A stretch of 64,000 bases of DNA from a virus: the IMG/VR virus record IMGVR_UViG_3300045988_171858. One strand, written 5' to 3'. Below, one piece after another: positions 8,506 to 27,293 of this stretch. The translations under genes and the position numbers were made by a program. Below the pieces are notes generated by a model. It searched no databases. It was given only the letters and a program-made list of their open reading frames with translations, and was not told where the DNA came from. The first letter of the stretch is position 1, and every line of letters begins with the position of its first letter.

Positions 8506-8511
8506 GATAAA

Positions 8512-8531: not shown

Positions 8532-8550
8532 AATTTAAACCAGGAATATT

Positions 8551-9255: not shown

Positions 9256-9285
9256 TACTTAAATCTATTCTCCTACAGGTGTAAT

Positions 9286-10674
9286 ATGCAAGATTATAAA
9301 AATCAGCCATTACACAAGGAAGAATATCATTCTGTGGGTGGCGATGCCACCCACATTATTTTTAACTTCCCTGGATACGGCTATCTTTACATGGGCAGTC
9401 TTCTTTCACTGTCTTATCAAATATTCAGAGACAAAGTCCCAGTCTATAATTTGGGCAACACAAATATCGACGGCTTTGCTATTGGTAAACGATACGTAGC
9501 AGGGTCGATTGTCAAAACATCATTCCTACACGACGACCTGCGCCAATTCATGCAAGATATTGCAGACGGCATTGGTATTAAAGAACCGGTCGACTCTATC
9601 TATCAATTAAAACTCGAAAAGCAAAAGGCTTATCATCACCTAATGGCAGATGACATCCTTCCTTTCGATATCATTATTCTTCTAAGTTCAGAGTATGGCG
9701 CCTTCTCCGTATCAGAAGTTATATACGGCGCAACGTTAATCAATTCTGGGCAAGTCCACTCAATTCACGACATCATTACCGAAAATACACTTTCCTTTGT
9801 TGCTAGGGATGCCAGACAAACGCGCAATAAAATTGGCAGTGCTGTTTATGGTGAAGCCAAACATAACGGCGTAAAGGCTTCACAGCTATCAGGAGAGAAT
9901 GTAAACTATAATAACGGTGACTCATCATATTATTACGACAGATGGAATCAATCCGTTAATGATGCAGTCAAAAAAGGCACATGGTCACAAGACGAAATTA
10001 ATCGTATTAACGCTTATTCTCAGCTTGCAGGTAATGGCACACAGGCCAACGTCCCTCAAAGCTATCTGGATGCAGCCAGAGAGGAATATCGCAAACAAGG
10101 CGCAACAGATGCTCCGGACAGTGCATCGGGTTCTAAGCCATCGGGTTACGATGGTGCATACCTAGATAAAAATAGTTTCAAGTCCAGTAAAAATGGGTTT
10201 GAAGTAGAGGACGGCGATACCGTCAAAGTTAATGCAAGGAAAAGTGACGGCACAGAATACCGCTCTAAAAATGAGGATGGCAGAACTTCTCTTCGTTTTA
10301 TGGGTATTGACACACCAGAGACTGACCACCAAAAGAATAAGGGTCAACCATACGGACAAGAGGCCGCAGATTTCCTTAAAAAATATGTCCAAGATGGCAA
10401 GTGGGACAAAGATATTGAAGACGGCGTAACCAAGGTTGTTGGAACAGATACTTATGGGCGTAAGTTATTCTACAATCCTAGGTATATAGAATCAGCAGTA
10501 GAGTCAGGAATGGCATGGTTTAGACCTGAAAGTGCCAGACAGGCTGGTATGTCCACCGAAGATATTAACCGTATCAAGCAGAAATACCACAAAGCAAAGG
10601 CCGGCAAAGTCGGACTATGGGGCGGAGACAAGATCGTTGATCCTGCAATACACAGAAAGACATGGGATAAATAA
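9286..10674 (+). CDS. tail-tube-like domain fused to staphylococcal nuclease (SNase/thermonuclease) domain
   Basis: The N-terminal ~190 aa are paralogous to the tube protein. The C-terminal part reads DGDTVKV...LRFMGIDTPE...QPYGQEAADFLKKYV...TDTYGRKLFYN, which is the SNase catalytic pattern. Confidence 0.7.
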   Translation: MQDYKNQPLHKEEYHSVGGDATHIIFNFPGYGYLYMGSLLSLSYQIFRDKVPVYNLGNTNIDGFAIGKRYVAGSIVKTSFLHDDLRQFMQDIADGIGIKEPVDSIYQLKLEKQKAYHHLMADDILPFDIIILLSSEYGAFSVSEVIYGATLINSGQVHSIHDIITENTLSFVARDARQTRNKIGSAVYGEAKHNGVKASQLSGENVNYNNGDSSYYYDRWNQSVNDAVKKGTWSQDEINRINAYSQLAGNGTQANVPQSYLDAAREEYRKQGATDAPDSASGSKPSGYDGAYLDKNSFKSSKNGFEVEDGDTVKVNARKSDGTEYRSKNEDGRTSLRFMGIDTPETDHQKNKGQPYGQEAADFLKKYVQDGKWDKDIEDGVTKVVGTDTYGRKLFYNPRYIESAVESGMAWFRPESARQAGMSTEDINRIKQKYHKAKAGKVGLWGGDKIVDPAIHRKTWDK

Positions 10675-11612
10675 TGGCTAAGTCAAAATATAATATCTCA
10701 AACACCAGCGATGGCGTTCAAGTATCTGTTGATGGGAACCGAGCCGAAGAACATTCTCGGGAATATAATATTGGTCTTGAATATGCTCTCGCTAAAAATC
10801 TCGCTCCTGGTAAAACTGTATCAGTTGATAAAACTATAATCGAGAAGATGTACCCAAAGGTACAGGATACAAGAAAAGGTCCTACCACATTTAAGCCAAA
10901 GGGCGTTCCGAAGGCTACTGGTAAAACCGATCCAATAGACAATATGTCAGCCATCTCTGCAAAGGGAAGAGGCAAACAGGTTAATCTTAACCCCGGAGAA
11001 ACGGACAGGGAAAGAGCCTTGGCGCATAGTAAAGTTCAGACTGCATCATACGATGGGTTGTACACCAAATACTATTCGTCTAGTGATTTTAATCTGTATA
11101 TTGGAGATATTTTAATTGACCGGGCGGCCGGTGTTGCTGTTGGAGAATCACTAACAAGCATACCTATTTACACTATTGGCAATAGTAGATACGACTTCCT
11201 AGCCAGAGGCAATGTAATCGTCAACGGTATTATTAGAATCAATAAAGCGGAGAAAGATTACCTTGCAAGGGTAATTGCACACTACCGCGGCCGGACAAAC
11301 GAATTTAAGATTCTTAGCTCATATGAACAGCTCCAGCTTACATCCGAAGAGCTTGCAAAATACCGCAAGCAGTTAAAGGAATACCAAAACGAACAGGTAT
11401 CGGCCAAATCTGTATTAGACTGGGCAGACCTAGGAAGCTTTACTATTCATATGGTCTATAATAACTCTGACGCTGTTACAGAGGGTGTTCAACAACGCAT
11501 ATCTATTGTAGAATGTAGAATAGTTGGATATGAACATTCAGTAGATATCGGCTCAGACGGCCAATTAATTGATGGATACAAATTCATCGCTAAAGAGGTA
11601 ATTCCAGAATGA
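10674..11612 (+). CDS. distant tail-tube-family paralog (tube initiator/terminator candidate)
   Basis: IPIYTIGNSRYDFLARGNVIVNGIIRIN resembles LPIHTMGSPDARAIARGKRTCMGSCVF and VPVYNLGNTNIDGFAIGKRYVAGSIVK in the two preceding genes. Confidence 0.4.
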   Translation: MAKSKYNISNTSDGVQVSVDGNRAEEHSREYNIGLEYALAKNLAPGKTVSVDKTIIEKMYPKVQDTRKGPTTFKPKGVPKATGKTDPIDNMSAISAKGRGKQVNLNPGETDRERALAHSKVQTASYDGLYTKYYSSSDFNLYIGDILIDRAAGVAVGESLTSIPIYTIGNSRYDFLARGNVIVNGIIRINKAEKDYLARVIAHYRGRTNEFKILSSYEQLQLTSEELAKYRKQLKEYQNEQVSAKSVLDWADLGSFTIHMVYNNSDAVTEGVQQRISIVECRIVGYEHSVDIGSDGQLIDGYKFIAKEVIPE

Positions 11613-12094
11613 GAGTTGAAAGAATTGAAGGGTTGGAGTCGCTACATCCAGACGAACTCTCCCCTGATGAACACGAGCAGTTAGCTCAGGCTAAAGAAAA
11701 TGCCGAGGAAGAGCGAAAGGAACAGACGGATATCGACATCCTCCTTGATGCTCTTTCCGACAAAGAAGATGCCCCAAAGATTTATGACATTGAAGCATGG
11801 CTTGAAAAATATGGTACAATTCATGTATCGTCAGTTTTGGGCGGCAAGGATATTTTTATCTGGCGTGTATTAAGACGACAAGAATATTCCAATATGATTA
11901 AACAGGGAATGATGGACAATGAAATTCGCGCAGAAGACTCAGTAGTTCGCCGTTGCCTATTGTACCCAGAAGCCAAACAAGAGTTTCTAACAACCGCTCC
12001 TGCAGGTTTTATTTCAACATTGAAAGAACAAATCATGTATCGCTCAGGATTTGTTCCACTGCAGCAAGCCTATTCGCAAATTAAGATCCTGTAA
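11609..12094 (+). CDS. acidic tail-assembly-chaperone-like protein
   Basis: Sits between the tube genes and the giant tape-measure-like gene. Acidic N-terminus. Shares an AGF(I/V)ST(L/V) segment with the next ORF. Confidence 0.4.
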   Translation: MRVERIEGLESLHPDELSPDEHEQLAQAKENAEEERKEQTDIDILLDALSDKEDAPKIYDIEAWLEKYGTIHVSSVLGGKDIFIWRVLRRQEYSNMIKQGMMDNEIRAEDSVVRRCLLYPEAKQEFLTTAPAGFISTLKEQIMYRSGFVPLQQAYSQIKIL

Positions 12095-12624
12095 TGAGTG
12101 CATTAGATTTGAAGACGGGGACAGTTGTTATCCCCTTTAATAACACCCCTATTCAAATCGAGGGGCAAATGTTTAAAAACCTATCTGTTCTAGCTAGACT
12201 AATGTCTATGACCGAATTAGATAGGGCCATGAGAATCAACATTGAAGATGCTGCAACAGAAGATGAGCTGTATGAAGAAATCTTCAAGTCCTGCGTTATT
12301 GATGTCCCAGGTATTCCAAAGGGCGTTGATTACAATAATTCCTCAGCCGGATTTGTATCAACAGTTGGCAAAATAATCTTTATAAAATCAAAGGAATACG
12401 TAGAAGACCCGTTCAAAGCATACGATAGAGCAGTGGAATCTGTCCCTATGGTAGAGGCAATGGCGGCAGTAATATCAAGGTTTCTTGGCATCAAATACAC
12501 AGAAGCAAAAAGTCTCCCCATTAACGACCTCTTCGAGATGTATGCGGCTTGCCATGTTGCATTTCCCAATGAGGTTGCCCCAATTGTCAAACAAGAGGAA
12601 GAAAGGGTTGGTCCTCCAGCATGA
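12094..12624 (+). CDS. tail-assembly-chaperone-like protein, paralog of preceding gene
   Basis: TAATG overlap with the upstream gene. SSAGFVSTVGKIIFI aligns with TAPAGFISTLKEQIM. Confidence 0.35.
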   Translation: MSALDLKTGTVVIPFNNTPIQIEGQMFKNLSVLARLMSMTELDRAMRINIEDAATEDELYEEIFKSCVIDVPGIPKGVDYNNSSAGFVSTVGKIIFIKSKEYVEDPFKAYDRAVESVPMVEAMAAVISRFLGIKYTEAKSLPINDLFEMYAACHVAFPNEVAPIVKQEEERVGPPA

Positions 12625-15600
12625 TAACATCTAATATTGGGTGGTCGGCCCTTAACGATTACAGAGACCGCAGAGAGGAAAGAATTGCTCACCGCAGAGT
12701 CTTGATGGATGCTCAAACAGTTGAGGAAAATAAATCCGAGCAAGAGGCCAGGGACATTGTAGGCTCTGTCGTAAAATACGGATTAACTCTGGAAGGCCTC
12801 GTATTGGCTAACAGAGCACTTAAAAATAAAGAAGTACAACGGAAGGTTGAGCGTTATGTAAACCTAAGCTACCTATCTGATTCTATCAGAGGTACGAAAC
12901 AGGACGCTCTAAATGTCTTCGGTGGCGGGAAAGTTACCTTAGCAAACTTGTCTATGAACGTGGCAAGGGCGTTCGAGGAACTTTCCCCTTTTTCTATTTT
13001 AAGAACCTTTAATACTTCCCATATTATCACTCCATTCTCTACCGTAGAATCTGAATTTGAATTCTCCTCCGATTTGCTAAAGGGGCAGAAAAGATACTTA
13101 AAATTCTTAGCATCAAAATACGGAGAGCGAGAATTAACAGACGCCGACTTTGATGTTGGGCTCAAATATTCGAAGGGTAAACTACTAGACGCATCGGACA
13201 ATGTAGTAATCGAAAATGCAAGACTTACTTTAACAGAGTTTGCAGGCACGGAACCGGGGCACTCAGCAACATCTAACTATAATAAAGTCCTGCGTAGACA
13301 TATAGCCGTTGGGGAAGGAGCATCGTTCCTATCCAGAAGAGAGATTGGCGACCTAGCGAGGAACGTCCCTACGCATACTCCATTTACAATTATTGCAGCA
13401 GATAAAAATGCAAATATTGGAAAAGAGTGGATGAAGTCTGTTGTTGGGCAGGCAATAGCTCAGGGTTTTAACATGGTCAATGAACCACTTGGGTTCATAG
13501 AAGAAACCGGCGGCACCTTGATTAATAGGAACTCAACACTCTTTAAACTGATTCGCAAATATGGCAGAATTAATCCAAATGCAACATCCGAATCAACAAT
13601 TAAGGAATTAGCAACCGGATATGCCAGACATGGCACAATGAAACTCGCAGGATTGGCAGCCGGGTTCTATGCATTGGACAATGCCTCCAGATTGATAGGT
13701 ACAGACGACTCAGGATTCGGTCATGGCATCCTCGAAGGACTATCAACAACATTCCTCGGCGCGAAACTCCTATATGCAGAGACTGTATCAGACAGGTTTG
13801 AAGAATACAGACAAGAGCAAGAGTATGTAGCACCAGGTTCAACTTCTCTGTTAAAACTAGCAGGCTTCCCTCTGGCTGGAGCAATGTTTGGTGGTACAAT
13901 CGCTTACGGCAGACGTGCAATCCCAACAGCGTTGGCAAATAATGGGTATATCAGCTCAACAATAGAGGCTGCAAGAGAAAGCTTTATATTCGGTCGCGGC
14001 GTAGCGACACTCGCAGCTAATACGCCAATACAAGATGCAGTAGCAGTAGGCACAAGGGCTAAACGATTTGCAACAAGAGGCGCGGCAATCGGTGCATTAT
14101 TTGCACTACCATTTCTCCCTGGTGCATTGATAGGCGAAAGTAGTGATGAAGTAAGGGCCGAATATCTGGAAGGCAAAGATGTAGCTATCCGTAAAAACAG
14201 AGGATGGTTCTCATCGTCAACACCAATAGAAGGTGAGGGTGTAAAATATTTCACCAAGAATTGGTATCAAAGATTGATGGCTGATAATAAAGACAAGATT
14301 CTTTATGGGGATAAAGACACAGAAGAAGATCTGAATCCATTCCTAAGTCCATTCGACTATCTAAGAAATCCATACCGCTTCGAACAAATGCACGAAGGAG
14401 ATATGCCATATCCTGTATGGGGCATGGACGTATCTATGGGCGGCTGGATTGGTCGCGGGTTTCAAATGGCCTTTGGCGACGCTATCAAGCCTGACCTGAT
14501 CAATCCAAGGATGGAAGCTCTCACACAAGAGATGCAGGACTCTGGTGAGCCTGACATTATTCCAACACTATCAATAACCCAAAATGTTTCAAATAAACGA
14601 CTATCGCTTATTGGTGATGGCAAAGCAACATATGGCGAGTTGGCTAAGTATGACCCTAATACAGAGTCAGCAAACTATATTGTATCTTCTGGTCTAGACT
14701 TCGTAGGTCTTAAAGGCTGGGCAGTATCAGGTGTGCTAAAAGACTTCGGTATAGGTATGCCGGACTTAAAAACACAATATGCACGCTCGGGAGAAGCCAC
14801 AAATATCGCCAGAGAGTTTGAAGCACAGAACCTCGGTGGTATGTTAGGTTCGGCGGACGTTATACGACGTATCATTCCAATGTCAGCAGACGTCACAGGA
14901 GAGCGTTTCAATCCGTTAAAAAATACTGCTGCTCCAGACTGGCTACCAAAAGGAGATTACTTCAACGACTTCTCAAGGGGCGCATTCTGGGATAAGGTAG
15001 AAAACGGATACGACAGGCTTCCTGGTAAGGGATACGAAACATGGAATCCAGAGCTATCTGACATTGACCCCAACGACTATCCAGACATCGACAAATTCAA
15101 AATCCTATCAGACGTAGCATTCGGCAGTAACGAATACTATAAAATGTATGAGAAGATGGAGGATTTGTATCGCAGGAAAGTCGCCGGAGAAGAAACCGAG
15201 CTTTCAGACGAAGACGCTGCAAGATTCGAAGAGATTTATATTCAATCCCAGGAACGCTCCAGGAAGAAGCGCTTCTTCGAATACAAGACAGACGAAGAGC
15301 TTGAAGGTATTTCAATGTGGGGCAGAATGCTGGGCTCCATATGGGAAAGTACAACCCATAATGCAGAGCTTTCAACAGAACGTCTGACATTCTTCCGGCC
15401 GGCGGGCAAGCTATTGCACCAAAGAACAGCAATAGAAGATTACGTCAAAACTCAACTATCCGAAGGCGACACTGCACTCTGGAACAAGCCATACGAACAC
15501 TTCATTAGGCCATTCGTAGAAGACTCATACAAGTACATAGACTCAGAGCATGTACCGGAATATATCCAAGAGCGAAGAAACGTAGACAACTACTTCGATG

Positions 15601-16391
15601 CCTTAGAGTTCTACAAACAGATGCAGATTTACCGCAAGTCTGCCGGCACTAATAGTTATGAGGCTAATATTGCAAAACAAAAAGCCGGCAAAACTGTTTA
15701 CGGCGCAGTGGCTTCAGGACTAGACACAAGACAAGATGTAGAATCCGCATATGGTGCACTTTCAGATAATGAACGTGCCTACTTCTCCTCTTTTATAAAT
15801 GCAAAAGAATCAGACAGAAATAAAATCTCAAGAATCGTAGACGACAATAACACATCCGATATGTACCGTATGCTATGGGCAAGGAAGGATGCTATCGAAA
15901 ACGGCGATGATGTTTCTGCATTAATTCAACAAGAAGAACAAGACCTAATTGACGAAAACCGTTCAGCATACCAGGCCTATAAGAATAGTGGGGATGCAGA
16001 CATAGGAATCTCATTCAGGGAGTATGTTCAAGAGCTAAGGGCAGCGTCGCTAATAGAAGAGGCAACGGGAATACCTACATCAGACTTCGCAGGATGGGAC
16101 CCAAGGATTGAAATCAAAGATGTCAAACTGAGGGCGTTGCAGCTATCTAAAGAAGATGTCAGGGAATATGGATTCTGGAAATCTGATGAAGAAGATTTGG
16201 CCAGGCAATCATACATCCTAAATGAAGACCAAGTAACAACACAGTTAAGCTCAATCAAAGAAACAAGAGCAAGACGAGAGTTCCAAGAATCGCTATTAAT
16301 AAAAGACCAGTTGATGAAGCGCGGTATATTTGCAAAAGATATCCGTTTTTCAAACACAGGGTTTAGCGACCAAAATATAAACATAGGTTAA
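12621..16391 (+). CDS. tape-measure-like / ejected internal tail protein
   Basis: 1256 aa at the tape-measure position. It has several hydrophobic Gly/Ala-rich segments (LAGLAAGFYAL, LAGFPLAGAMFGGTIAYG, GAAIGALFALPFLPGALIG). Confidence 0.5.
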   Translation: MITSNIGWSALNDYRDRREERIAHRRVLMDAQTVEENKSEQEARDIVGSVVKYGLTLEGLVLANRALKNKEVQRKVERYVNLSYLSDSIRGTKQDALNVFGGGKVTLANLSMNVARAFEELSPFSILRTFNTSHIITPFSTVESEFEFSSDLLKGQKRYLKFLASKYGERELTDADFDVGLKYSKGKLLDASDNVVIENARLTLTEFAGTEPGHSATSNYNKVLRRHIAVGEGASFLSRREIGDLARNVPTHTPFTIIAADKNANIGKEWMKSVVGQAIAQGFNMVNEPLGFIEETGGTLINRNSTLFKLIRKYGRINPNATSESTIKELATGYARHGTMKLAGLAAGFYALDNASRLIGTDDSGFGHGILEGLSTTFLGAKLLYAETVSDRFEEYRQEQEYVAPGSTSLLKLAGFPLAGAMFGGTIAYGRRAIPTALANNGYISSTIEAARESFIFGRGVATLAANTPIQDAVAVGTRAKRFATRGAAIGALFALPFLPGALIGESSDEVRAEYLEGKDVAIRKNRGWFSSSTPIEGEGVKYFTKNWYQRLMADNKDKILYGDKDTEEDLNPFLSPFDYLRNPYRFEQMHEGDMPYPVWGMDVSMGGWIGRGFQMAFGDAIKPDLINPRMEALTQEMQDSGEPDIIPTLSITQNVSNKRLSLIGDGKATYGELAKYDPNTESANYIVSSGLDFVGLKGWAVSGVLKDFGIGMPDLKTQYARSGEATNIAREFEAQNLGGMLGSADVIRRIIPMSADVTGERFNPLKNTAAPDWLPKGDYFNDFSRGAFWDKVENGYDRLPGKGYETWNPELSDIDPNDYPDIDKFKILSDVAFGSNEYYKMYEKMEDLYRRKVAGEETELSDEDAARFEEIYIQSQERSRKKRFFEYKTDEELEGISMWGRMLGSIWESTTHNAELSTERLTFFRPAGKLLHQRTAIEDYVKTQLSEGDTALWNKPYEHFIRPFVEDSYKYIDSEHVPEYIQERRNVDNYFDALEFYKQMQIYRKSAGTNSYEANIAKQKAGKTVYGAVASGLDTRQDVESAYGALSDNERAYFSSFINAKESDRNKISRIVDDNNTSDMYRMLWARKDAIENGDDVSALIQQEEQDLIDENRSAYQAYKNSGDADIGISFREYVQELRAASLIEEATGIPTSDFAGWDPRIEIKDVKLRALQLSKEDVREYGFWKSDEEDLARQSYILNEDQVTTQLSSIKETRARREFQESLLIKDQLMKRGIFAKDIRFSNTGFSDQNINIG

Positions 16392-16394: not shown

Positions 16395-19300
16395 ATGGCA
16401 ATCAACAATCTAGTGCTCGGCGGTGCTGCCGCGGGCTTTATGGCAGGTGACCCAATTGACAGTCCGATTTCATCGATCGCTGGCATTGGATTGGGAGCTT
16501 TGATCGGTTCTTCAATCGAGGTTGTTAAATCAAATCGGAAAGAGCGAACTCCTCGCGGTTCCGCTGATATCAGAGTTGACCATACTAAATTAAACAGTAA
16601 GGCGAATAGGACATTCACAGAGGACAATTACGCCGCAGAGATGCAGCGTCAGGCTAAACGTCACAGTGCAATGACAAGATATTCAGGGCGGAGAAGTATC
16701 CGTGAAGTAACAGCAGAAGCCCAAAAGAATAGAGGTATTATTACAGACTCTATGAGGACTGCTGCAGTTGAACGTGCAAACAGTTCTGTCTCTAAATGGG
16801 AAAGTGCCGTTTTGCACAACTTCAACTCTTTGTCCAATATGGACTTGTCGGAAACCTTAGGTCAAAGCGGGGCAATGAAATTTATCCGTGGAGAATATAC
16901 CGCAGATGAATTGTCAAACCTTGTTGTTAGCGGCAAACTTACAGATGAGCATTTCAAAATACTGAGACGCGCATCTTCAAACGAATTGATTTCATCAGAA
17001 GTAAAAGCCGGCGAAATCAACTACTCTTCAAAATTAAGAACAGTAGATATGAGCTGGGTCAAAAACAAAGAAGTGCCAAATATAGGCTCTCTTTCTATTG
17101 ACAGAACAGCCAGCAAAGAAGAGAAGATAAACGCACTTAAAGGCTATCTATCAGGCACACTGGGCCATGACGATGCATTCGCAGAAAGATTTGCACATAA
17201 TATCAGCAACTTCTATCCTGGCGCCGCAATTGATATTTCTAACTCTGACATTTCTATCAAGATGCCAAACGGGGAAACAATCAAAGACCTTATCCCAGAG
17301 AAAAGGAATGGGGTCCTGCAATACTCAAAGAATGGCAATATATACGAAGCAAAATTATATCAACCGTTCGCTGACTCTATTGGTGCTACATTGGGCGGCA
17401 TTGAAATGGCATCCCTATCATCAGACGGGAAAAGCGTTATTATTAGCTCCTCAATTGCCGATAGTACTGTCATTGATGGGTTCACTAATCTTGAAGTTGC
17501 AGGATTTAGAGGTCATGTAGAAGGAACTCCATATGGCAAGGCCCTAGAGCAAATGCAAAGCCTTGGCGCTTATGTCGGTCCTGATGACGGTGAGAATGTC
17601 GTAAGGGCGCCGTCACTTGATACAAAACTTCAGTTCAATCCTTCGGACACCGGTAAGATTGTAAGAATGAAAGATGCAAGTTCTCTTGAGGGCCAAAGAA
17701 GAACCTACAATGTAATCAATCAGGCAATGATTGGCCAAACAGGACTATCAGCAATTCCATCTAATCTCCGCTCAAGAACTTATTCTGTATCAAGTGCCTA
17801 TCAGGCCGAGCAGGCAGTAGCTGGTATAGCCCCTCACCCAGAGCGTTCAACAGGCACAGTGTCAAGAGGAACCGTAATTGACCTTGCAAATACTACACAT
17901 GAAGATACAAGACGCATTGCGCAAGCATCTAAGTTGCTAGTAGAACAAGGACTAGGTCACAACTTTAGCGGCGCAATCTTAGCATCAATCGTCGGACATA
18001 ATAGCAGCTTCAATAACACTATTGGTAGTGCAGTAATGGGCATGGTACTGGAGGACGGCAAAACAGAGCAGATGCTTAAGGGTATCCATTTGAATGCTCC
18101 GGGAACTGTTCGTCTCGGACAAGGTGCCTTTACAGGAACAGAAGAGCAAATCGCTAAGATGGCCCAAATCCAAAATGGCAATAATGTTTCCTACAAAGGC
18201 GGCGAAAGTATAGGTTTCTTCGGAGGGAAAGAATATACGATTCCGAAGACGGTGGATTCCTTTACGGTTTCAAGAATTGAGAACACCAGAGACGGGTACA
18301 AATTTGTAGGCAATAATAATGTTGTTACAGATACAGATTCTAACTCGGGCATCAAAATCTTTAACGATGTTAAGTCTACATCTACCCATAGAACAGAACG
18401 TGATTTTGCATTAAAAGAAATCATAGATAGGTTCGAAAGGGAAGGCTCCATTTCAATGGAGAACGGCTCTATTGTGGTGTCGTCAAGAGATACTAGAAAT
18501 CTCGAAAGACATAACCAACTTCAGAAAGTTTTACCTGAGGGCCGCAGCAGATTCTCCCCAAAAGAGTTTAGAGGCGCTATCGAGAAGTTTGTAGAGCAAA
18601 ACGGCGCAGAGCTAGATGTTGCATTGGCTAAGGTTAGAAATACCTACAAAGATATCAATGTCCGTTCAGAGGATTTTAAAACAGGTTATACGCTCCAAGG
18701 TCTAGAGGTTAGCAACTTCAGAGATAAAGATCAAATCAATAGAGCAAAAAATGTAATCGTGGAGGTTATAACCAATAGCGGATTAGATGTCTCAGGCGAA
18801 CTGCCAGAAGATGCTCCACAGGCATTAAAGGATTTGCAGCATTCGTTCAATAAGCTATCAGAAGCCGGGCTGGATTCAAACGAGGCCGGCAATGAAGTTA
18901 AACGGGCAAGGGCAAGTTTATTCGCAGCTAAAGCTATCGAAGATCCTAAGTTCTCAAATATCGCATTGGGAACTATGCTTGGCAATCTATCTCAGGCGCA
19001 TGACAAAGCCCTTAAACGCGGCAATTCAGTAACTCTTAATTTTGCATTGGGAGATGGCACATCAGTTCCTATCCATGTTGGTAAGGGTAACGATATATCT
19101 TCTGCAATGGCGGAATTAATCAAAGCCTCAAGTAAGCGCCAGAATATGTATGCTGCAGGGAAAATTAGCTATGACCAATTATACGGTGCAATCAAGGGCG
19201 ACTATACGGGCCTAGAATCGTTAGGCTCAAAAATGAGTCTGTATAATCTAGCAGGTCTACGTCCTGGCACGGCGGCGCTTACAGGCGAATCGAGCCGAGG

Positions 19301-21398
19301 TCAAAAAATGTCCTGGATGGCTATGGATAGATTCGACCATCTTACAAACTCACACGAGCTAAAAGATGCCCTTACAACTCTAAATATGGATGCCATATAC
19401 GAAGCTAAAGCCAGAGGCATGGAGCTTGAGAGCGGACATGAGTTCTCTCAAGTGTTTGATGCAGATGAAAGAGAGCGGGCCATTCAAATTGAAGACCTAT
19501 TCAACAAGGATGAAACAAAACGACTTAAGGCCTTCGAAAACGGCGGCTCTTTGAGCCATGTAAAACCTCAGGATGGCATCTTAAATATCAACCTGCCAGT
19601 TCCAAAAGGAATGAGCAAAGAGTTCAAGGGGCAAAAATCCCTATCTATTCCAATCCTAGATAGCAACATAAGCGGATACGCAGAGCTTCCAAATGGCAAA
19701 GATGCCACAAAAGAAGCTACAAAGATGAGAAGAAATCTTCTACTCTCTTTATCCGATTACATGAACGCTAAGGGTGTTGGTGGCGTAGCAGAAGAGTTTG
19801 CCGCAACAGCCTATATGAACGCCTTTAAAGAATATAGGGATTTCCAGAAGCAAACAGGTTCTTCTCTTAAAAAAGCAGCCGCAGGTCGGAATTATAGGAA
19901 TGCCTCATACTCAACCGTTCAGCCTCTAAATAGTGCGCAGCAAGCAGTCTTTGACGACGGTATGAATAAGGATAAACTTAGAGTCTTTGTAACCGAAGAA
20001 GCCGCAGCAGAATACGGGCTTGATAAGAAGAGGTTCGAATATCAAGAAATCGGCGATAGCGGTATGTTCAGAGTTATAGACAAAGAAACTAAACATCCTG
20101 TACAAGGCTTGTTTACTCGCGAACCTGCAACTGGTCCGAACTCTGTTCTTAGCACAGAGCTTGTCGTAGACAGAAATATGGGCAAAGGTATGGCAGTCGG
20201 GATGGATGCTCAGATGATGAAATTAAACTCTGGCGACTTTGACGACGATAAAGCTATTATCTCCGTATTGGATCCTAAGTCCAAGGACTTCTCTAAAAAC
20301 AATAAAGGGATGGTCAACATCATGAAGCGCCAAGCAGAAATGGTAAAAAGCCACAAAGATGCTATCACTAAGCTTACACCCAAGCTGAATGAAAGCAATA
20401 AAAAATTTACCAATATCTCCGGCGTTGGTGATGCTACAAAAAAACTTATCGACAACATCATGTCCGGTAAGGAACGTGACATCGAGGCTCCAAGAGTAAC
20501 TGCATTCCATCAATTGGTAGAAGGTTCTCTCAAACGCGCCAAAGACGAAGAGATGAAAACTCTTGCTATGGCAGACATGGATGATGCTGCAAGAAAAGCC
20601 GCAATGTCAGAAGTAAGAGCCAGATATTACATCGCTGAACAGACAGCCTACCTTATGCAGGAGAATACGCTTAAGTCGGTTCGTCTTGCAAATAAGGGTG
20701 GTCTATCCACAAGTCTTATGGAACAGATTGACGAGTTTATGGCAGAGAACCGTGGCAAACACGCGAACTATAATAAACTCGGAGATGTTATCGGTAGTTT
20801 CATGGAGTCGCTATATCAGCATAGTGACGATGATGTAGGTAGGTCTATTCAGGATGCAATCAATACTGTCAGGAAATCTGTTGGAAAATACGGCAAAGTG
20901 ATAGCAGACAGCCCAATAGAAATGGTTGGCGGTAAAGGATTTAATGCAAATTCCAATGCAGCAGCAATAGCCGCAGCAGCTAGAAATAGCAGCGCAGCAG
21001 AGGCCGCAGCATTGCCTTTTGAGGCGAATCCTAGTACCATTAATAGAATAGAAGACGGTGCTTATAGTGTTTTAGAAACGCTAAAGCATAACAAAAACAA
21101 ACTTATCCTTGGCGCGGCGGGGATGGCTGGACTTGCTATGATTAGCAGGTCAGAAGCTCCAAACCCAAGCTCACCTATGTATAACTCCCCTGTTGCCAGA
21201 ACCAATCCCGTATTGGAAGGTAGAACATCAGAAACCAGCTATGTAAAAGACTGGGGTAACGATCCTAACTCTGTTACCATTAACGGTCATGTTATTAACG
21301 GATTCTCAGATACAAGGATTAAACAGGGTCTAAGAGGCCTGATACAAGGTGATACAAACCAAAGGTCAACAGTAACATTTGACAATAGAAATTACTAA
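16395..21398 (+). CDS. giant virion protein with two-barrel RNA-polymerase-like motifs
   Basis: 1667 aa with N- and C-terminal hydrophobic segments. SSRGQKM at 19290-19310 resembles the beta/Rpb2 SRHGQKG motif. REP-x36-NSGDFDDD (20118-20249) resembles beta-prime NRAPTLH-x28-NADFDGD. Confidence 0.45.
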   Translation: MAINNLVLGGAAAGFMAGDPIDSPISSIAGIGLGALIGSSIEVVKSNRKERTPRGSADIRVDHTKLNSKANRTFTEDNYAAEMQRQAKRHSAMTRYSGRRSIREVTAEAQKNRGIITDSMRTAAVERANSSVSKWESAVLHNFNSLSNMDLSETLGQSGAMKFIRGEYTADELSNLVVSGKLTDEHFKILRRASSNELISSEVKAGEINYSSKLRTVDMSWVKNKEVPNIGSLSIDRTASKEEKINALKGYLSGTLGHDDAFAERFAHNISNFYPGAAIDISNSDISIKMPNGETIKDLIPEKRNGVLQYSKNGNIYEAKLYQPFADSIGATLGGIEMASLSSDGKSVIISSSIADSTVIDGFTNLEVAGFRGHVEGTPYGKALEQMQSLGAYVGPDDGENVVRAPSLDTKLQFNPSDTGKIVRMKDASSLEGQRRTYNVINQAMIGQTGLSAIPSNLRSRTYSVSSAYQAEQAVAGIAPHPERSTGTVSRGTVIDLANTTHEDTRRIAQASKLLVEQGLGHNFSGAILASIVGHNSSFNNTIGSAVMGMVLEDGKTEQMLKGIHLNAPGTVRLGQGAFTGTEEQIAKMAQIQNGNNVSYKGGESIGFFGGKEYTIPKTVDSFTVSRIENTRDGYKFVGNNNVVTDTDSNSGIKIFNDVKSTSTHRTERDFALKEIIDRFEREGSISMENGSIVVSSRDTRNLERHNQLQKVLPEGRSRFSPKEFRGAIEKFVEQNGAELDVALAKVRNTYKDINVRSEDFKTGYTLQGLEVSNFRDKDQINRAKNVIVEVITNSGLDVSGELPEDAPQALKDLQHSFNKLSEAGLDSNEAGNEVKRARASLFAAKAIEDPKFSNIALGTMLGNLSQAHDKALKRGNSVTLNFALGDGTSVPIHVGKGNDISSAMAELIKASSKRQNMYAAGKISYDQLYGAIKGDYTGLESLGSKMSLYNLAGLRPGTAALTGESSRGQKMSWMAMDRFDHLTNSHELKDALTTLNMDAIYEAKARGMELESGHEFSQVFDADERERAIQIEDLFNKDETKRLKAFENGGSLSHVKPQDGILNINLPVPKGMSKEFKGQKSLSIPILDSNISGYAELPNGKDATKEATKMRRNLLLSLSDYMNAKGVGGVAEEFAATAYMNAFKEYRDFQKQTGSSLKKAAAGRNYRNASYSTVQPLNSAQQAVFDDGMNKDKLRVFVTEEAAAEYGLDKKRFEYQEIGDSGMFRVIDKETKHPVQGLFTREPATGPNSVLSTELVVDRNMGKGMAVGMDAQMMKLNSGDFDDDKAIISVLDPKSKDFSKNNKGMVNIMKRQAEMVKSHKDAITKLTPKLNESNKKFTNISGVGDATKKLIDNIMSGKERDIEAPRVTAFHQLVEGSLKRAKDEEMKTLAMADMDDAARKAAMSEVRARYYIAEQTAYLMQENTLKSVRLANKGGLSTSLMEQIDEFMAENRGKHANYNKLGDVIGSFMESLYQHSDDDVGRSIQDAINTVRKSVGKYGKVIADSPIEMVGGKGFNANSNAAAIAAAARNSSAAEAAALPFEANPSTINRIEDGAYSVLETLKHNKNKLILGAAGMAGLAMISRSEAPNPSSPMYNSPVARTNPVLEGRTSETSYVKDWGNDPNSVTINGHVINGFSDTRIKQGLRGLIQGDTNQRSTVTFDNRNY

Positions 21399-21407: not shown

Positions 21408-24400
21408 ATGGCAAGATTTACTTTTTCTATCAACGGAATGCTAGATTTAGAACCAATCTCATTCGACAAGGTTGATAAGTTTTATACAACCCAGCACGAA
21501 TTCCTACGAGATACTTCGGTTCTAACTTCTAAATCCAGATATAGCGAGATGCTTCATCTTGCCACATTCGCATTTGATGCCTCGGATGCTAAAGACATTG
21601 AAAGGCTTCAAACGCTAATTGCTATCTGCAACTCATTTCCATATGTATTCATTCGTTCAGATGCGATTGTTGAAAATCATTTGATGCCCTTGAATCTAGC
21701 AATAGGTTCTGGGTATTACATGTATGCACTGCATGAGTTTCAGGCAGAAATGTCTTCAACTGATGCAGACCAGGGTGTAGTTACAGTTTCCCTAAGACTG
21801 CAAATGGTAAACTGGAAACCTCTCGCCAAGAGTATTAAATTCATCTCAATCGAAGAGGGCTCAGAAGTTAAGACTAAATCTGGCAAAGTCAGAAATATTT
21901 CCGAATATAATGGCGAAGATGGAGACCAGGTTGTTTCTACCGGCAGCTATGTGAAATACGTTGATAACCCAGAAGAGTCCAATCTTCTTAACTACATGGT
22001 TGAGAAAAATACGAGTGAAGATATTGAGGCTCTTCTTAACTCAGGTCTAAGTCGCTCGTTTGAATTTAATCTTGGATGGCCTCTTGTTATGACGGACATC
22101 CAATTTGAGGGTAGGCCAAAATCAGATTTCTGCTGGAATCTTGTTCGACAGTTCAGAACATTAAAGACGGTAGACCTAGAAGGCTCTTTGCAGACAAAAG
22201 AAGGCAAGAAAACGTCTCAAGCAAATATCTCAGAAGTAACAGACGACAATGCCGAACGTTACGATGAGACTGGTAGAATTTGGGTCGGATATGTAAGAGA
22301 AAGGCTTGCAGGCACCAATGTCAAAGACGGCGGCGTGGCATTACAATCAATTACCGTCAGACGCAGAAATAGATTTGCCAATCAAACAGTTCAAGGTTTC
22401 GTATACCCATATGCACAATATCTTGGACGTTCTCCTTCTGAAGTTCTAATTACAACTGCCGTTAATCATACTAAAGGCATGGCATCTACAACCGCCATGC
22501 AAGCAATCAAAAAAGCCGACGAGATGACAAACTATGTAAGGGTGTCAACGCCGGCATTAAAAGGGCTAGATGTACTTGCAATCGAAAATCCCCTAGTAAA
22601 TGGTCTAGGCATTAAATATGCAATCCTAGACTCATCTCATGCAACCACATCTGGTTCACTAAATAATCTCCTAATCAACAACTTCACCTTTATTGAATCT
22701 GATTCTTACGGCGCAATAGAATCCAGTAGATACGTACTAGCATCTTCTGTTAACGGATGGAATGACTCTGCCAATAAAGCACAAAGACTAATTGATGTGA
22801 TCGGACAGTATCGCGCCCTTAAAAAAGACGGCTCAAGTACATCCGAATACAACAATATGATTTCCATGATAAACAGTCGCTTGGCTGACGCATTGGATAA
22901 ATCGGCTAAGGCAGAGCTATCAGAAGCTAAATCACTTCAAGAGTCCGATGTCTACAAAAAGGCAGACGACACTCAGAAATCTGTATATATCACTCAATTA
23001 TATTTACAGCTCGTATCAGCCAATACTGCCTCAGGTTCGGAAGAGCGTATAACACTGGAGCGTATAAGACTTCTAGATTCAGAAATGGAATCGTTGTATT
23101 TCGAGGTTATCACTAACCTTAATCCAATTACAATTAAGGGTTTAAAAGAAGACCTTAAAAAAGAAAAGGATTGGATTGACAAACTTGAAGGCAATTATAC
23201 GTCGTTCAATGGAGAGGGCATTCCGGATTTAAGAATTAAAGAAATCTTTGAGAACCTAACTCCAACAAAAGAGTACAAAAGCTGGAAAGACCTGTCGTCA
23301 TTCCCATTTATCTATGACCAAGGCATTCTATCTCCGGATAAAGTAGTAGCATACTGGGATGAAAAACTTCCAGAAATCAACAAGTTGCTGGAAGCAACAG
23401 GCGCGTTAATCAAAACAGACCTAAATATTTACACAACTGCTCCAGCTATGAATGATGCCGGAGGTAACTCAACTACCGGTGCATCGGTTATGGTTCAAAA
23501 CCCGGACGGCGGAACTTCTCCAAAACGTAAAGCAAACGTAGAATTGGTCTACACCAGAGACCAGTATGAACGTGACTACAAGGTAAGCACAGGTTCAAAT
23601 AAACGTTTACTCCCATTGGAAAGCATCGTAGCTTATACAAGGCTTGGTAGGGACTTGCAGAACTTTGGTGGACGGCATATGGGGTTAGATATGCCAGTAC
23701 CAGTAGGATCGCCTGTACGTGTTGCCGATGATGGTGTTGTAGCCGTAGCTAAGTTCCAGATGAATAAAAATGGTAAGCGCGGATACGGTAACGTAATCTA
23801 TGTTAAGCATGCAAACGGAATCGAAACTAGATATGCCCACTTAAGCCGCATTCTCGTAAGAGAGGGTTCTCGTGTTGGTAGAGGTCAGGTAATTGGACTA
23901 TCAGGTAACACTGGTGGTTCTACAGGCCCGCACCTTCACTATGAAATCAGAATTAATGACAAGGTGATTAGTCCCAAGGCTTACTACGGCAAATCTACAA
24001 ACGGCCCATCCTCTATTGCGACATCATCAAAAACAAACTCTTCTTATTCCGCAGCAGCATACGCAAGAGGCGGCTCAAGAGCAAGGTCAAGCATTATGAC
24101 CTTAAAAGAGTTTATCTCTGCTGGTGAAAGTGGAGGCAGTTATGATATTGCCAACTGGTATATAGGCAAAAGGTTAAGCTCAGGTAATAGAGGCATCTCT
24201 AATAAGACAGTGGCCCAAGTAATGGCTATGCAGAGCGCAGGGCAGCTTTACGCGGTTGGGAAATACCAAACCATACCTGTAACTCTTAGAGCTGCTGTAC
24301 AAGGCCTACGGCTGCCTGGAAGCACACCTATGTCTCCATCCGTTCAAGAAAAGATCGGAACATGGTTAATCTTCAATAAACGTCCTGCACTAGGTGCTTA

Positions 24401-27293
24401 TATTAGAGGCGAAAGTAATGACCTTGATAAGGCACACAGAGAGTTTGCATTAGAATGGCGCTCTATTCCAATGCCCAATGGCCGTTCAGCAAGTGCAAGC
24501 GGCGATAAAGTTCACGCCGGTTACACTCCAGAAAGAGTAAGACAGGCACTACTTGCAGCAAGAGCAGCGTATGTTAAATCGCTGTCTAGCGGCAAGAATA
24601 AGGAGCAGGCACAGGAAGAGGCTGTTGCGTCAACCGCGCTTGCAAGGGTTTCTGCCGGTGAAGATGTGTCAAAGGTTGCTGAAGGTTACATTAACGAACT
24701 TTATGCTGGCCGTGAAAAAGACCCAATCGAAGCAATTGTAGACCCAGTTCCATGGACAGAGGAAATTCAAGCTAAGTCTAGGCTTGAAAACTTTGTCAAA
24801 GACCTGAATCGAGGAATCCAAAAATTGATTCCGACATACAAGGTTTATATGGTTCACGGTAATGACGAAAACAGTTTGATTAACCTAATCAACTATCGTC
24901 AACATGCATCATACTACGAAGTTCCTGCAGTTAGAAACATTCGCGTAGAAATGGCAAATCAGGATAACCCTGTTGCTGTCGCTACATTTGAAGTTCTTAA
25001 TGCTTTAAATACAGCTTCTGATCCTAAAGAAATCAGAGCCTTAAAGCCTGAGAATGTGGATATACGCTCCTTAAACTCTGACGCGGCCCGTATTATTTCA
25101 ATGGACCAAATCAGACTCAAAGCTGGCAATAAAATCCAGATTAGAATGGGATACGGGAACGATCCTAATAAGCTGTCTGTTGTATTTAATGGAATCGTAA
25201 CAGAGTCTGACGGCGGAGAAGTTCTGACAATTGTAGCAGAAGGCTTCGGTAGAGAGCTTCAAAACGAGCAATTGTTTATCGGCGATGTAGTGCCAACATT
25301 CTCTTTCCTTTCCGATATTGACAACCTCTATGTATCAGCAGCGGTGGCTAAAGTTCTTAAGTCGGCTAATCTAGATAGCTTTGGTAGAAACCCAAGATGG
25401 TTTGCAGACAATGCAGACTTTAGAGATGTAAGAGGTATGAGCAACGAAACTGCCGCTTCAACCCTCGTTGGTGATAGCGGCATAGGGTTCAGTAATTCTC
25501 TATGGAATTCACAGCTAGACGAATACTTCTTCTATTCTGCAAAAGGCGCAACGGAGAGCCTGGAAAACTTCTGGCTTATGAATGTTGATATGGCAGACCG
25601 ATTCTTTGTTACAAGCCTAAAAGACCTGTTCCCATTCTCGCTGAATGATTTCTTCTCAAACTTCAATGTTGTTAATAAGACTGTTTGGGATGTATTAACA
25701 ACCGGCCGCCGCATGTTCCCATCATCTGTCCTATTGGTTAAAAACATCGAAGGACGCTCTACAACATTCGCAGGGATTAAAGAGCAGATGATGATAGGTA
25801 AAGAAAAGCCAACATCATTAGCAGCAGAACTGCTATCCAAGATTCAGAAGAAAGCAGACTTCAAGAAAGAGGCAGACTCAGCCCTAGCTGGAGACACCAC
25901 AGGTATCGGCCAATTCGTAGCAGAAAACGAACTAAAAGAGAAGACAAAGATCATTGGAGAGCAAACATTAAAAAACAATGGCTCCGATATTATTGACTTA
26001 CTGGATGCGGCAAACGCAGACAAATACGTCGACATCTCCTCTTATGTTCCTGCTACAAACTTCCATATGATTAACAGTTCTTACAATCTAATTTCAAATC
26101 AACTAAGACTAGACCAGAACTGTATCACTGGCGCTAAAGTAGAATACAATAGCGACCCAGAGGATTTTGGATACGGAGAGAATATCTTTGATATGAAAGC
26201 AAACGGCGGCCTTAAAGGTTCGCTTGCCAAGTTCGGATATATCAACGATAACTCCATTAGCTCTGTTGGTATGGCTATCAAAACTGCTCAAGGTTATTTA
26301 CTAGAAGAACTGGAAAAGATGTATGATGGTGCGGTTATCATTACCGGTAATCCGGACGTTCAGCCTGGCGACTATGCATTCATTCAAGATGACCTGAGAA
26401 ATATGTCGGGTGTGATTAAATGCCGCGAAGTTCAGCATGTATTTACAGACTTCGACGGGTATGTAACAATCATTACCCCAGGTATGTTTGTAGAGCCGTC
26501 AACTCATATGTATTCAAATTTGTATATGAAACTTGGCATCTTTATGAACTTTGTTTCAACAGCAGCATCTGAGTACGCTCAGGTGTCAAGCGCAGAAACA
26601 ATTCCAGGTCTAATCTATGAGCAAACAGCATTCCAACCAACTGACCTTGGTGCTTCCGTATACCTTCTTGGCGTAGGAAACGTTGCAGTAGGTGGACTAT
26701 CAGCAGCTTTGACGTATGGTGCGGCAAGTCGTATACTTGGTGGCCCTGCCATAAGTAGGGGCCTATCATTGGCAGCACGGGCAGGTAAGGCCGTTGCAGG
26801 TGCAGGTTGGGTTCGCTCATTAGCACACACGGCAATGTCATTTGGTTCTTCTGTTGGTTCAAAAGCACTACAAGTTCTACCAAGAGCAGCTAAGGTTATA
26901 TCGGCAGTCCGGAGCGTAATTGCAGGCGGAAGATCATTAGCATTAGCAGCAGCTGGTGCTGCGGCAGGAGGATTCATTGCCACGGCAGCAGTATCGGCCC
27001 TTGTAGTGGTTCTTGTATATGGTGCACTGGCCATGGTACAAAACCTAATTGAATCATATGCACTTAAACTCGAAATGAGACACCGTGCATTGATGAAATT
27101 CCCAGTCAAGGTTTATGGCCAAGAATACACAGCAGGCTTAACAGGATGGAATGATACAGAGACTCCATTAGAATTACAAATAGAGACAGTAAAAGAAAGC
27201 ATTAGGGCTTTAGGCGACATCAGCGAGGCTTCAACTCGGGCCGGTTACGATGGTTCTAAATATGCCTTATATTTTAAACTAGCTACGGATTAA
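21408..27293 (+). CDS. giant baseplate-hub / cell-wall-degrading protein (M23 peptidase + lysozyme-like + gpD/gp27-like + C-terminal hydrophobic region)
   Basis: M23 motifs HMGLD...YGNVIYVKH...GNTGGSTGPHLHYE at 23667-23951. GESGGSYD...AVGKYQ lytic-transglycosylase-like segment at 24096-24480. IQIRMGYGNDPNKLSVVFNGIV hub-like segment at 25110-25250. Ala/Gly-rich hydrophobic stretch at about 26630-27045. Confidence 0.65.
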   Translation: MARFTFSINGMLDLEPISFDKVDKFYTTQHEFLRDTSVLTSKSRYSEMLHLATFAFDASDAKDIERLQTLIAICNSFPYVFIRSDAIVENHLMPLNLAIGSGYYMYALHEFQAEMSSTDADQGVVTVSLRLQMVNWKPLAKSIKFISIEEGSEVKTKSGKVRNISEYNGEDGDQVVSTGSYVKYVDNPEESNLLNYMVEKNTSEDIEALLNSGLSRSFEFNLGWPLVMTDIQFEGRPKSDFCWNLVRQFRTLKTVDLEGSLQTKEGKKTSQANISEVTDDNAERYDETGRIWVGYVRERLAGTNVKDGGVALQSITVRRRNRFANQTVQGFVYPYAQYLGRSPSEVLITTAVNHTKGMASTTAMQAIKKADEMTNYVRVSTPALKGLDVLAIENPLVNGLGIKYAILDSSHATTSGSLNNLLINNFTFIESDSYGAIESSRYVLASSVNGWNDSANKAQRLIDVIGQYRALKKDGSSTSEYNNMISMINSRLADALDKSAKAELSEAKSLQESDVYKKADDTQKSVYITQLYLQLVSANTASGSEERITLERIRLLDSEMESLYFEVITNLNPITIKGLKEDLKKEKDWIDKLEGNYTSFNGEGIPDLRIKEIFENLTPTKEYKSWKDLSSFPFIYDQGILSPDKVVAYWDEKLPEINKLLEATGALIKTDLNIYTTAPAMNDAGGNSTTGASVMVQNPDGGTSPKRKANVELVYTRDQYERDYKVSTGSNKRLLPLESIVAYTRLGRDLQNFGGRHMGLDMPVPVGSPVRVADDGVVAVAKFQMNKNGKRGYGNVIYVKHANGIETRYAHLSRILVREGSRVGRGQVIGLSGNTGGSTGPHLHYEIRINDKVISPKAYYGKSTNGPSSIATSSKTNSSYSAAAYARGGSRARSSIMTLKEFISAGESGGSYDIANWYIGKRLSSGNRGISNKTVAQVMAMQSAGQLYAVGKYQTIPVTLRAAVQGLRLPGSTPMSPSVQEKIGTWLIFNKRPALGAYIRGESNDLDKAHREFALEWRSIPMPNGRSASASGDKVHAGYTPERVRQALLAARAAYVKSLSSGKNKEQAQEEAVASTALARVSAGEDVSKVAEGYINELYAGREKDPIEAIVDPVPWTEEIQAKSRLENFVKDLNRGIQKLIPTYKVYMVHGNDENSLINLINYRQHASYYEVPAVRNIRVEMANQDNPVAVATFEVLNALNTASDPKEIRALKPENVDIRSLNSDAARIISMDQIRLKAGNKIQIRMGYGNDPNKLSVVFNGIVTESDGGEVLTIVAEGFGRELQNEQLFIGDVVPTFSFLSDIDNLYVSAAVAKVLKSANLDSFGRNPRWFADNADFRDVRGMSNETAASTLVGDSGIGFSNSLWNSQLDEYFFYSAKGATESLENFWLMNVDMADRFFVTSLKDLFPFSLNDFFSNFNVVNKTVWDVLTTGRRMFPSSVLLVKNIEGRSTTFAGIKEQMMIGKEKPTSLAAELLSKIQKKADFKKEADSALAGDTTGIGQFVAENELKEKTKIIGEQTLKNNGSDIIDLLDAANADKYVDISSYVPATNFHMINSSYNLISNQLRLDQNCITGAKVEYNSDPEDFGYGENIFDMKANGGLKGSLAKFGYINDNSISSVGMAIKTAQGYLLEELEKMYDGAVIITGNPDVQPGDYAFIQDDLRNMSGVIKCREVQHVFTDFDGYVTIITPGMFVEPSTHMYSNLYMKLGIFMNFVSTAASEYAQVSSAETIPGLIYEQTAFQPTDLGASVYLLGVGNVAVGGLSAALTYGAASRILGGPAISRGLSLAARAGKAVAGAGWVRSLAHTAMSFGSSVGSKALQVLPRAAKVISAVRSVIAGGRSLALAAAGAAAGGFIATAAVSALVVVLVYGALAMVQNLIESYALKLEMRHRALMKFPVKVYGQEYTAGLTGWNDTETPLELQIETVKESIRALGDISEASTRAGYDGSKYALYFKLATD

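Follow-up and report, generated by a model that had tools for sequence, protein, structure and literature searches.

Two-barrel RNA polymerases (RNAPs) are the universal transcription enzymes, and their divergent phage forms, such as gp66, gp96/gp64 and YonO, have reshaped views on RNAP evolution and on the start of infection. Here we describe a candidate phage enzyme of this kind. The window analysed is the 64,000-nucleotide stretch of IMG/VR virus record IMGVR_UViG_3300045988_171858, which derives from an uncultured phage of ~185 kb with a contractile tail, known from metagenomes associated with humans. The gene in question is an open reading frame (ORF) of 1667 residues (16395-21398, + strand) located among the tail genes. 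Its product is, in all likelihood, a homolog of two-barrel RNAPs. It probably also founds an unannotated and highly divergent family of RNAPs that carry both barrels (double-psi beta-barrels, DPBB) in a single subunit and occur in large myoviruses resembling Acinetobacter phage vB_AbaM_ME3 (ME3 below), whose gp36 is the ortholog of the 1667-residue protein.

The crAss-like virion RNAP gp66 of phage phi14:2 (PDB 6VR4; bioRxiv 10.1101/2020.03.07.982082) is, like the present candidate, a giant single-chain two-barrel enzyme. Both share the signature RxPxxGxxS-x30-DFDxDK with identical spacing, and both are missed by ordinary sequence searches. In phi14:2, three genes for giant virion proteins (gp65, gp66 and gp67) follow one another with gp66 as the second, an arrangement comparable to the successive ORFs of 1256, 1667 and 1961 residues found here. 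However, phi14:2 is a podovirus-like crassvirus devoid of a sheath, and outside the motif the two proteins have no detectable sequence similarity. Unlike gp66, members of the present family have conserved hydrophobic termini, and the gene stands where a contractile tail module has its tape measure.

In the Thermus phage P23-45, the tape-measure locus encodes gp96 (PMC10770324), whose two-barrel RNAP is accompanied by a metallopeptidase of the M23 type and by transmembrane segments; the present locus offers the same combination around its RNAP-like gene. The M23 domain of the downstream 1961-residue ORF (residues 747-853) is 42% identical to the gp96 metallopeptidase (residues 3153-3255). The gene order of the present locus, RNAP-like and then peptidase/transmembrane, therefore mirrors the domain order of gp96. 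A 'GDG' motif and an Arg-rich motif ahead of the candidate second barrel are shared as well, while the RNAP parts show no sequence similarity. In P23-45, which is a siphovirus, RNAP, tape measure, peptidase and transmembrane segments belong to one polypeptide of 5002 residues whereas in the myovirus studied here the RNAP-like protein and the peptidase/transmembrane giant are encoded by separate ORFs with a 9-nucleotide gap. Moreover, P23-45 possesses a non-virion paralog of its RNAP (gp64), but no second copy or paralog of gp36 was detected when positions 4262-234900 of ME3, almost its entire genome, were scanned in six frames.

Jumbo myoviruses of the phiKZ and AR9 type also bring in two-barrel virion RNAPs with a contractile tail, and use them for host-independent early transcription (PMC7598289, PMC7824862). 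Those enzymes are composed of 4-5 subunits, clearly related to bacterial beta and beta', and are encoded outside the tail module. In contrast, the present candidate, in which both barrels would lie in one chain, is far more divergent and is encoded within that module. In phiKZ, the DNA is packed around an inner body of the head (PMC7909554). RNAP delivery through a contractile tail, which a first-pass annotation of the window had deduced, thus has precedents in phages of the phiKZ/AR9 type (PMC7824862, PMC7598289), and a tape-measure-fused RNAP is known from the siphovirus P23-45 (PMC10770324). A survey of jumbo-phage transcription assigned DPBB RNAPs to group 1 phages and, beyond these, to just two phages of group 3, which it names; ME3 does not appear among them (PMC7824862).

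YonO of SPbeta and the YonO-like RNAP of Bacillus phage 0305phi8-36 are also single-subunit two-barrel RNAPs of tailed phages. YonO-like enzymes are about 800 residues long and non-structural, and YonO is a DNA-dependent RNAP. Their genes lie elsewhere in the genome. In 0305phi8-36, the nearest well-studied structural relative of the source phage's tail module, the equivalent protein of the tail locus (gp146) has no RNAP features. The candidate described here would work like gp66 and gp96, yet judged by its sequence it belongs to neither family. It appears to represent a new single-chain, sequence-orphan two-barrel RNAP family at a myovirus tape-measure locus, unrecognised in annotations. Literature searches, including a search of supplements, found no prior description of the family.

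The catalytic barrel and its conservation

The ORF is uninterrupted, with its stop at 21398 and the following ORF starting at 21408. Its translation confirmed the limits and length given in the first-pass annotation, as well as the presence of the two motifs on which that annotation had based a two-barrel assignment. The elements discussed below are distributed as follows:

16395-21398, + strand: ORF of 1667 residues, candidate single-chain two-barrel RNAP, ortholog of Acinetobacter phage ME3 gp36
16410-16532, + strand: N-terminal Gly-rich hydrophobic segment (residues ~6-46), kept across the family including ME3 gp36
17832-17870, + strand: 'PHPERSTGTVSRG', with invariant R484 and R491, putative duplex-binding helix preceding the candidate second barrel (DPBB-B)
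18036-18479, + strand: candidate second barrel DPBB-B (residues ~548-695), proposed from motifs and secondary-structure order only
19290-19307, + strand: 'SRGQK' of the first-pass annotation (residues 966-971), a chance resemblance in the connector loop between the barrels
19902-20267, + strand: catalytic barrel DPBB-A (residues ~1170-1291), identified by motif, conservation and fold matches
20433-20570, + strand: long helix 'ERDIEAPRVTAFHQLV' (residues 1347-1392), putatively bridge-helix-like
20583-20747, + strand: helix-loop-helix (residues ~1397-1451) with 'QENTLKSVR', putatively trigger-loop-like
21099-21395, + strand: C-terminal hydrophobic helix 'LILGAAGMAGLAMISR' (residues 1569-1584) and tail of ~80 residues, both conserved

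The segment 'TREPATGPNS...NSGDFDDDK' (residues 1241-1286; R1242 to D1285, nucleotides 20118-20249) had been proposed to be the motif of the beta-prime barrel, and both its position and the numbering of D1281, D1283 and D1285 proved right. R1242-E-P1244-A-T-G1247 is encoded by nucleotides 20118-20135 and D1281-F-D1283-D-D1285 by nucleotides 20235-20249, with 39 residues from R1242 to D1281. The protein passes the filter [RK]xPx{20,100}DxDxD used in the literature for RNAPs (PMC10770324, Suppl. Data 4), but this loose pattern is carried by 7.3% of shuffled sequences and is by itself little proof. The stricter pattern RxPxxG-x(25-45)-D[hydrophobic]DxD is present in only 0.025% of the shuffles of the 1667-residue protein, so that chance alone hardly accounts for the observed motif. 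In gp66 the corresponding segment reads YRIPNQGQSS-x30-DFDIDK, compared with TREPATGPNS-x30-DFDDDK here, and in both cases the Arg lies 39 residues before the first Asp.

A word-indexed search retrieved 13 close homologs (64-95% identity), on contigs of up to 187 kb. An exhaustive profile search of 1.84 billion representatives yielded 12 proteins only; nine full-length relatives (P0015-P0023) are 20-28% identical. Repeating the homolog search with a diverse alignment returned the close homologs again and nothing further, and no match was obtained by tblastn against 50,697 phage genomes, ME3 included. ME3 was identified as the best cultured relative of the sheath protein. Its gp36 (1603 residues, annotated 'hypothetical protein') matches the hidden Markov model of the family at 5e-33 and has a separate clade (P0026-P0033).

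Even among homologs that share no more than 15-20% identity, R1242, P1244, D1281, D1283 and D1285 do not vary, as the first-pass annotation would have predicted for the Asp triad. In distant family members DxDxD takes the form DxDGD (SGDLDGDK, ADFDGDM, SGDFDGDA, SMDYDGDQ). When the two clades are aligned jointly, at 15-17% identity, few central positions are invariant. These include, in the numbering of the ORF, R484, R491, D554, G555, K654, W974, Y1002, K1160, R1242, P1244, D1281, D1283, D1285, T1369, E1423 and K1427; K660 is nearly so. The family invariants fall onto active-site elements of two-barrel RNAPs and agree with an alignment built on structures in the supplement of PMC10770324, which covers gp96, gp64, QDE-1, gp66 and the T. 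thermophilus RNAP. The active-site residues are under purifying selection.

The region covering residues 470-1530 was modelled with AlphaFold2 using a 23-sequence family alignment. The model is a compact mixed alpha/beta fold with a mean predicted local distance difference test (pLDDT) score of 81.8 and a predicted template modelling (pTM) score of 0.72. When it was compared with the PDB using Foldseek, each of the best 50 matches was the beta' chain of a bacterial RNAP (E from 2.4e-4, probability ~0.99). Among viral models (BFVD), the top match was ME3 gp36 (1e-16), followed by a pair of uncharacterised phage giants with alignments of >1000 columns, then by a Microcystis myovirus protein and a giant protein of a crAss-like phage. 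Lower matches include RNAP large subunits (Rpb1 homologs) of pithoviruses, mimiviruses and poxviruses (147 kDa), nudivirus LEF-9 and jumbo-phage beta'. The structural comparison suggested in the first-pass annotation thus retrieves beta' chains and the large subunits of viral RNAPs, and homology of the catalytic module is established.

Three uncharacterised giants in BFVD are matched with probability 1.0 over 650-1250 columns: A0A7R7G2L5, the siphovirus 'minor tail protein' A0A8S5SD80 and A0A075BUT7 of Microcystis phage MaMV-DC. Such matches between predicted models hint that further unrecognised tail-associated two-barrel RNAP-like proteins may occur in other phage groups.

A proposed second barrel and putative elements surrounding the active site

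The beta/Rpb2 barrel motif was initially placed at 'SSRGQKM' (residues 966-972, nucleotides 19290-19310). R968 and G969 vary already among close homologs. At the SRGQK position, distant homologs carry NKTTV, SKATM or SPTI, without a conserved Lys, and the adjoining S973-W974-M975 alone is conserved. In the model, SRGQK (model residues 497-502) belongs to a block (model residues 491-500) with a mean pLDDT of 61 and forms a loop of the long inter-barrel region. Its likeness to the beta motif is a chance resemblance. The interval in which a DPBB had been expected, around residues 960-1290, conflates this connector region with the true catalytic barrel at residues ~1170-1291.

A likelier second barrel is found ~310 residues upstream, at residues ~548-695. 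In described enzymes, DPBB-B is preceded by an Arg-rich duplex-binding helix ('LRRENIYRTP' in gp96, 'WRVSDVFRAP' in gp64), its beta2 motif is 'GDG', 'NDG' or 'FED', and it ends with a basic-x5/7-Lys-small motif (PMC10770324). The family invariants match all three features with 'PERxxGxxxRG' (R484, R491), 'GDGq' (D554-G555, both invariant, a 'GDG'-type beta2 motif) and 'vKlFGDxKS'. The latter corresponds to 'GIKIFNDVKSTS' in the present protein, where K654 is invariant and K660 nearly so, and may be compared with 'GRFGSAKG' of QDE-1 and 'GDK..RHGNKG' of beta. A beta-hairpin insertion (residues ~598-644) coincides in place with the beta flap and with the gp66 insertions. In the model, the order of elements is strand-strand-helix, beta-hairpin insertion, strand-strand-helix-strand, which fits the published order. 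DPBB-B is counted here as inferred.

Two further elements come after the catalytic barrel. A 46-residue helix (residues 1347-1392) includes the invariant residues A1365 and T1369, of which T1369 is still invariant in the two-clade alignment; by analogy, it may constitute a bridge-helix-like element. In the helix-loop-helix at residues ~1397-1451, E1423 and K1427 are invariant ('QENxLK') and the tip (residues 1430-1438) is disordered (pLDDT <50). This putative trigger-loop-like element would correspond to the 'VDxxK' of gp66, QDE-1 and gp96.

The tail-module locus

The genes surrounding the candidate RNAP include the following:

6250-8505, + strand: tail sheath (PHROG 16991, 8e-63)
8551-9255, + strand: tail tube-like protein
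9286-10674, + strand: tube paralog fused to an SNase nuclease domain
11609-12624, + strand: two small ORFs (161 and 176 residues) at the tail assembly chaperone position, comparable to ME3 gp33/gp34 and 0305phi8-36 gp143/gp144
12621-16391, + strand: upstream giant ORF (1256 residues) with two hydrophobic segments, ortholog of ME3 gp35 and 0305phi8-36 gp145
21408-27293, + strand: downstream giant ORF (1961 residues), tape-measure/hub-lysin-like, ortholog of ME3 gp37 and 0305phi8-36 gp147

The sheath and tube genes (6250-10674) define a contractile-tail module, and the baseplate genes start at 28304. ME3 gp33 is annotated 'putative tail chaperonin' and gp34 'hypothetical'. The 1961-residue ORF carries an M23 peptidase domain (residues 756-856, nucleotides 23673-23975) and strong C-terminal transmembrane segments. 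The sheath match and the succession of chaperone-position ORFs, giant genes and baseplate genes bear out the earlier description of a sheath-bearing phage and a tape-measure locus. The order sheath, tube, tube plus SNase, three small ORFs, giant of ~1270 residues, RNAP-like giant and M23/transmembrane giant is collinear in ME3. It is the same in the relative with a 22%-identical RNAP-like protein as far as its contig goes, the gene after the RNAP-like one being covered for its first 470 residues only. The position of the gene in the structural operon is therefore conserved.

The hydrophobic termini pointed out in the first-pass annotation are real and conserved, as a Gly-rich segment (residues ~6-46) and a helix (residues 1569-1584). 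The layout of C-terminal helix and tail is also observed in ME3 gp36 and in gp146 of 0305phi8-36, a non-homologous positional equivalent. Both gp145 and gp146 of 0305phi8-36 were found in virions by mass spectrometry; for ME3, no virion proteome was found. Annotated as 'hypothetical tape measure', gp146 exhibits no similarity to the family and no DxDxD, and was rejected as a homolog. Since gp146 has no RNAP features, the RNAP-like gene in the tape-measure slot is restricted to the ME3-like lineage. The possibility that the 1667-residue protein is itself the tail tape measure protein was also rejected. It has no PHROG or Pfam match to tape measure proteins, its fold is compact and not extended helical, and the matches of tape-measure type (M23, transmembrane) are in the next ORF.

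Other features of the window deserve mention. In the second tube paralog (462 residues; 9286-10674, + strand), the SNase domain (PF00565) spans residues 336-445. The same tube-SNase fusion is present in the relative with the 22%-identical RNAP-like protein (2474-3847 of its locus); such a combination of nuclease and tube-like virion protein is uncommon. In the baseplate/fibre region, a 1350-residue tail protein (33333-37385, + strand; PHROG 5717) includes a bactofilin-like beta-helix domain (PF04519, residues 736-814). A small second M23 peptidase of 237 residues, which may be a lysis enzyme, is encoded on the opposite strand just past the structural module (52481-53194, - strand). The ORF at 768-4334 (+ strand, 1188 residues) has no Pfam or PHROG match and carries DxDxDxD at residues 500-506. 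It was rejected as a second RNAP: the surrounding sequence is Ser/Gly/Tyr-rich, with a composition like that of a structural or fibre protein, and lacks the RxP..G context.

The ribonucleotide reductase (RNR) large subunit is split into two ORFs (55999-57444 and 57703-58596, - strand) separated by a gap of ~260 nucleotides, and the RNR small-subunit ORF (58909-60933, - strand; 674 residues) matches RNR_sm at residues 412-607 only. This layout suggests an intron, intein or homing-endonuclease insertion. The ME3 RNR large subunit is likewise broken by a homing nuclease. ME3 also encodes gp218 (NC_041884 187426-187638, - strand), annotated 'baculo_LEF5_C superfamily protein'. It is a TFIIS-like zinc ribbon, of the type working with two-barrel RNAPs, and a possible cofactor of the gp36-type enzyme.

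Possible activity and delivery, and alternative readings

On balance we favour the view that the protein is a catalytically active, virion-delivered early transcriptase. In such an enzyme, the N-terminal barrel (residues ~548-695) would provide the two lysines K654 and K660 and the C-terminal barrel the Mg-binding Asp triad D1281/1283/1285, followed by the bridge-helix-like helix and the trigger-loop-like hairpin. Judging from where the gene lies, from the hydrophobic ends preserved in its product and from the presence of the neighbour's ortholog in virions, the RNAP-like protein would be built into the virion with both flanking giants, namely the membrane-segment protein and the tape-measure-like protein with M23 peptidase and transmembrane segments. 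All three would be ejected via the tail at infection. The ejected RNAP would then transcribe the first phage genes from the incoming DNA, independently of the host polymerase. Later phage genes would be transcribed by the host RNAP, because ME3 has no second copy. A more elaborate scheme can be envisaged, in which the new single-chain family takes the place of the tape measure in ME3-like phages or occurs beside it, is lodged inside or behind the tail tube alongside the two membrane-active giants and is threaded in ahead of the DNA as a membrane-anchored ejectosome-transcriptase. This scheme is tentative, and we are more inclined to doubt it than to rely on it.

Several observations weigh against a two-barrel RNAP delivered by the virion. 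Profile searches of the kind proposed in the first-pass annotation recognised no RNAP family: Pfam and PHROGs scans of the ORF identified neither an RNAP nor a tape measure family, and the catalytic blocks of 12 family members gave only noise against Pfam. No match to PDB sequences was obtained by phmmer/hmmsearch with the full protein, the full family or the catalytic block as queries. BLASTP against gp66 and gp96 found no significant match, and hhalign of the family gave a probability of 0.1% for gp66 and was also non-significant for gp96. The family is unannotated, very divergent and outside the reach of Pfam, PHROGs and BLAST. In structural terms, comparison with cellular RNAPs gives low global TM-scores (0.11-0.16), as is expected if one module of a large protein superposes; the structural argument lies in the consistent hit list. 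As for the second barrel, the isolated AlphaFold model of residues 485-715 has a pLDDT of 63.8 and loses the Lys-bearing strands; its Foldseek search of the PDB was non-significant, with plastid RNAP beta and vaccinia Rpo132 no higher than ranks 44 and 49. The two proposed barrels are also joined by a connector of ~500 residues, far exceeding the ~140 of gp66 and QDE-1. Finally, no convincing repeated promoter-like motif was detected in the 44-64 kb region, and a folded enzyme of ~185 kDa does not obviously fit in the tail tube.

The silence of sequence searches, the low TM-scores and the loose motif found in 7.3% of shuffles would be expected if this were an ordinary giant tail protein with a chance DxDxD, its long helices over-read by AlphaFold and Foldseek. 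Such a coincidence is largely refuted and very improbable. The strict motif (0.025% of shuffles) has the same spacing as in gp66, and its residues are invariant while the remainder of the protein falls to 15% identity. In addition, the best 50 PDB matches are solely RNAP beta' and the BFVD matches are enriched in RNAP large subunits of unrelated viruses. Another alternative is descent from an RNAP followed by loss of activity. The fold would have been exapted for a structural role in the tail lumen, as a tape measure or in ejection (as a membrane channel), which would agree with the conserved hydrophobic N- and C-terminal segments, resembling those of tape-measure and ejection proteins, and with the slot of the gene, where 0305phi8-36 encodes gp146 ('hypothetical tape measure protein'), which has neither DxDxD nor similarity to the family. 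The triad of ME3 gp36, which reads DHDQD and not D[FYL]DGD, is a further point in this direction, being non-canonical, but all three Asp (D1217, D1219 and D1221 of ME3 gp36) are kept. However, a structural role alone would not keep active-site residues, and nearly all positions invariant at 15-20% identity are those expected in an RNAP active site (Asp triad, RxP, two Lys, 'DG', and E..K of the trigger-like hairpin). We consider exaptation unlikely.

Slightly less probable still is an active two-barrel polymerase devoted to another task, either primase-like, an RNA-dependent RNA polymerase (as QDE-1) or a PolD-like DNA polymerase. The two-barrel superfamily does take in RNA-dependent RNA polymerases and archaeal PolD (PMC10770324), and template and product are not readable from sequence. 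However, the significant fold matches are all to large subunits of DNA-dependent RNAPs and none to PolD, the characterised single-chain phage relatives gp66 and gp96 are DNA-dependent RNAPs serving early transcription, and ME3 encodes its own DNA polymerase and primase/helicase. The single-chain two-barrel RNAP of a contractile-tail module put forward in the first-pass annotation is supported by its beta'-type motif, the invariance of this motif and the fold matches, while its beta-type motif had been misplaced.

If active and virion-borne, the candidate RNAP would represent a third independent way to bring a cellular-type RNAP into the cell, as a free-standing protein whose gene lies at the tape-measure locus within a contractile-tail module. 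The passage of a ~185-kDa enzyme through the tail tube would then constitute a mechanistic puzzle. ME3, which infects Acinetobacter baumannii, would become a tractable model, and rifampicin-insensitive early transcription would be expected in phages related to viruses of this therapy-relevant pathogen. Should the tentative ejectosome scheme hold, the present family and gp96 taken together would suggest that tape-measure/ejection proteins and cellular-type RNAPs have been linked since early times, and repeatedly, in phages of the sipho-, podo- and myovirus morphotypes.

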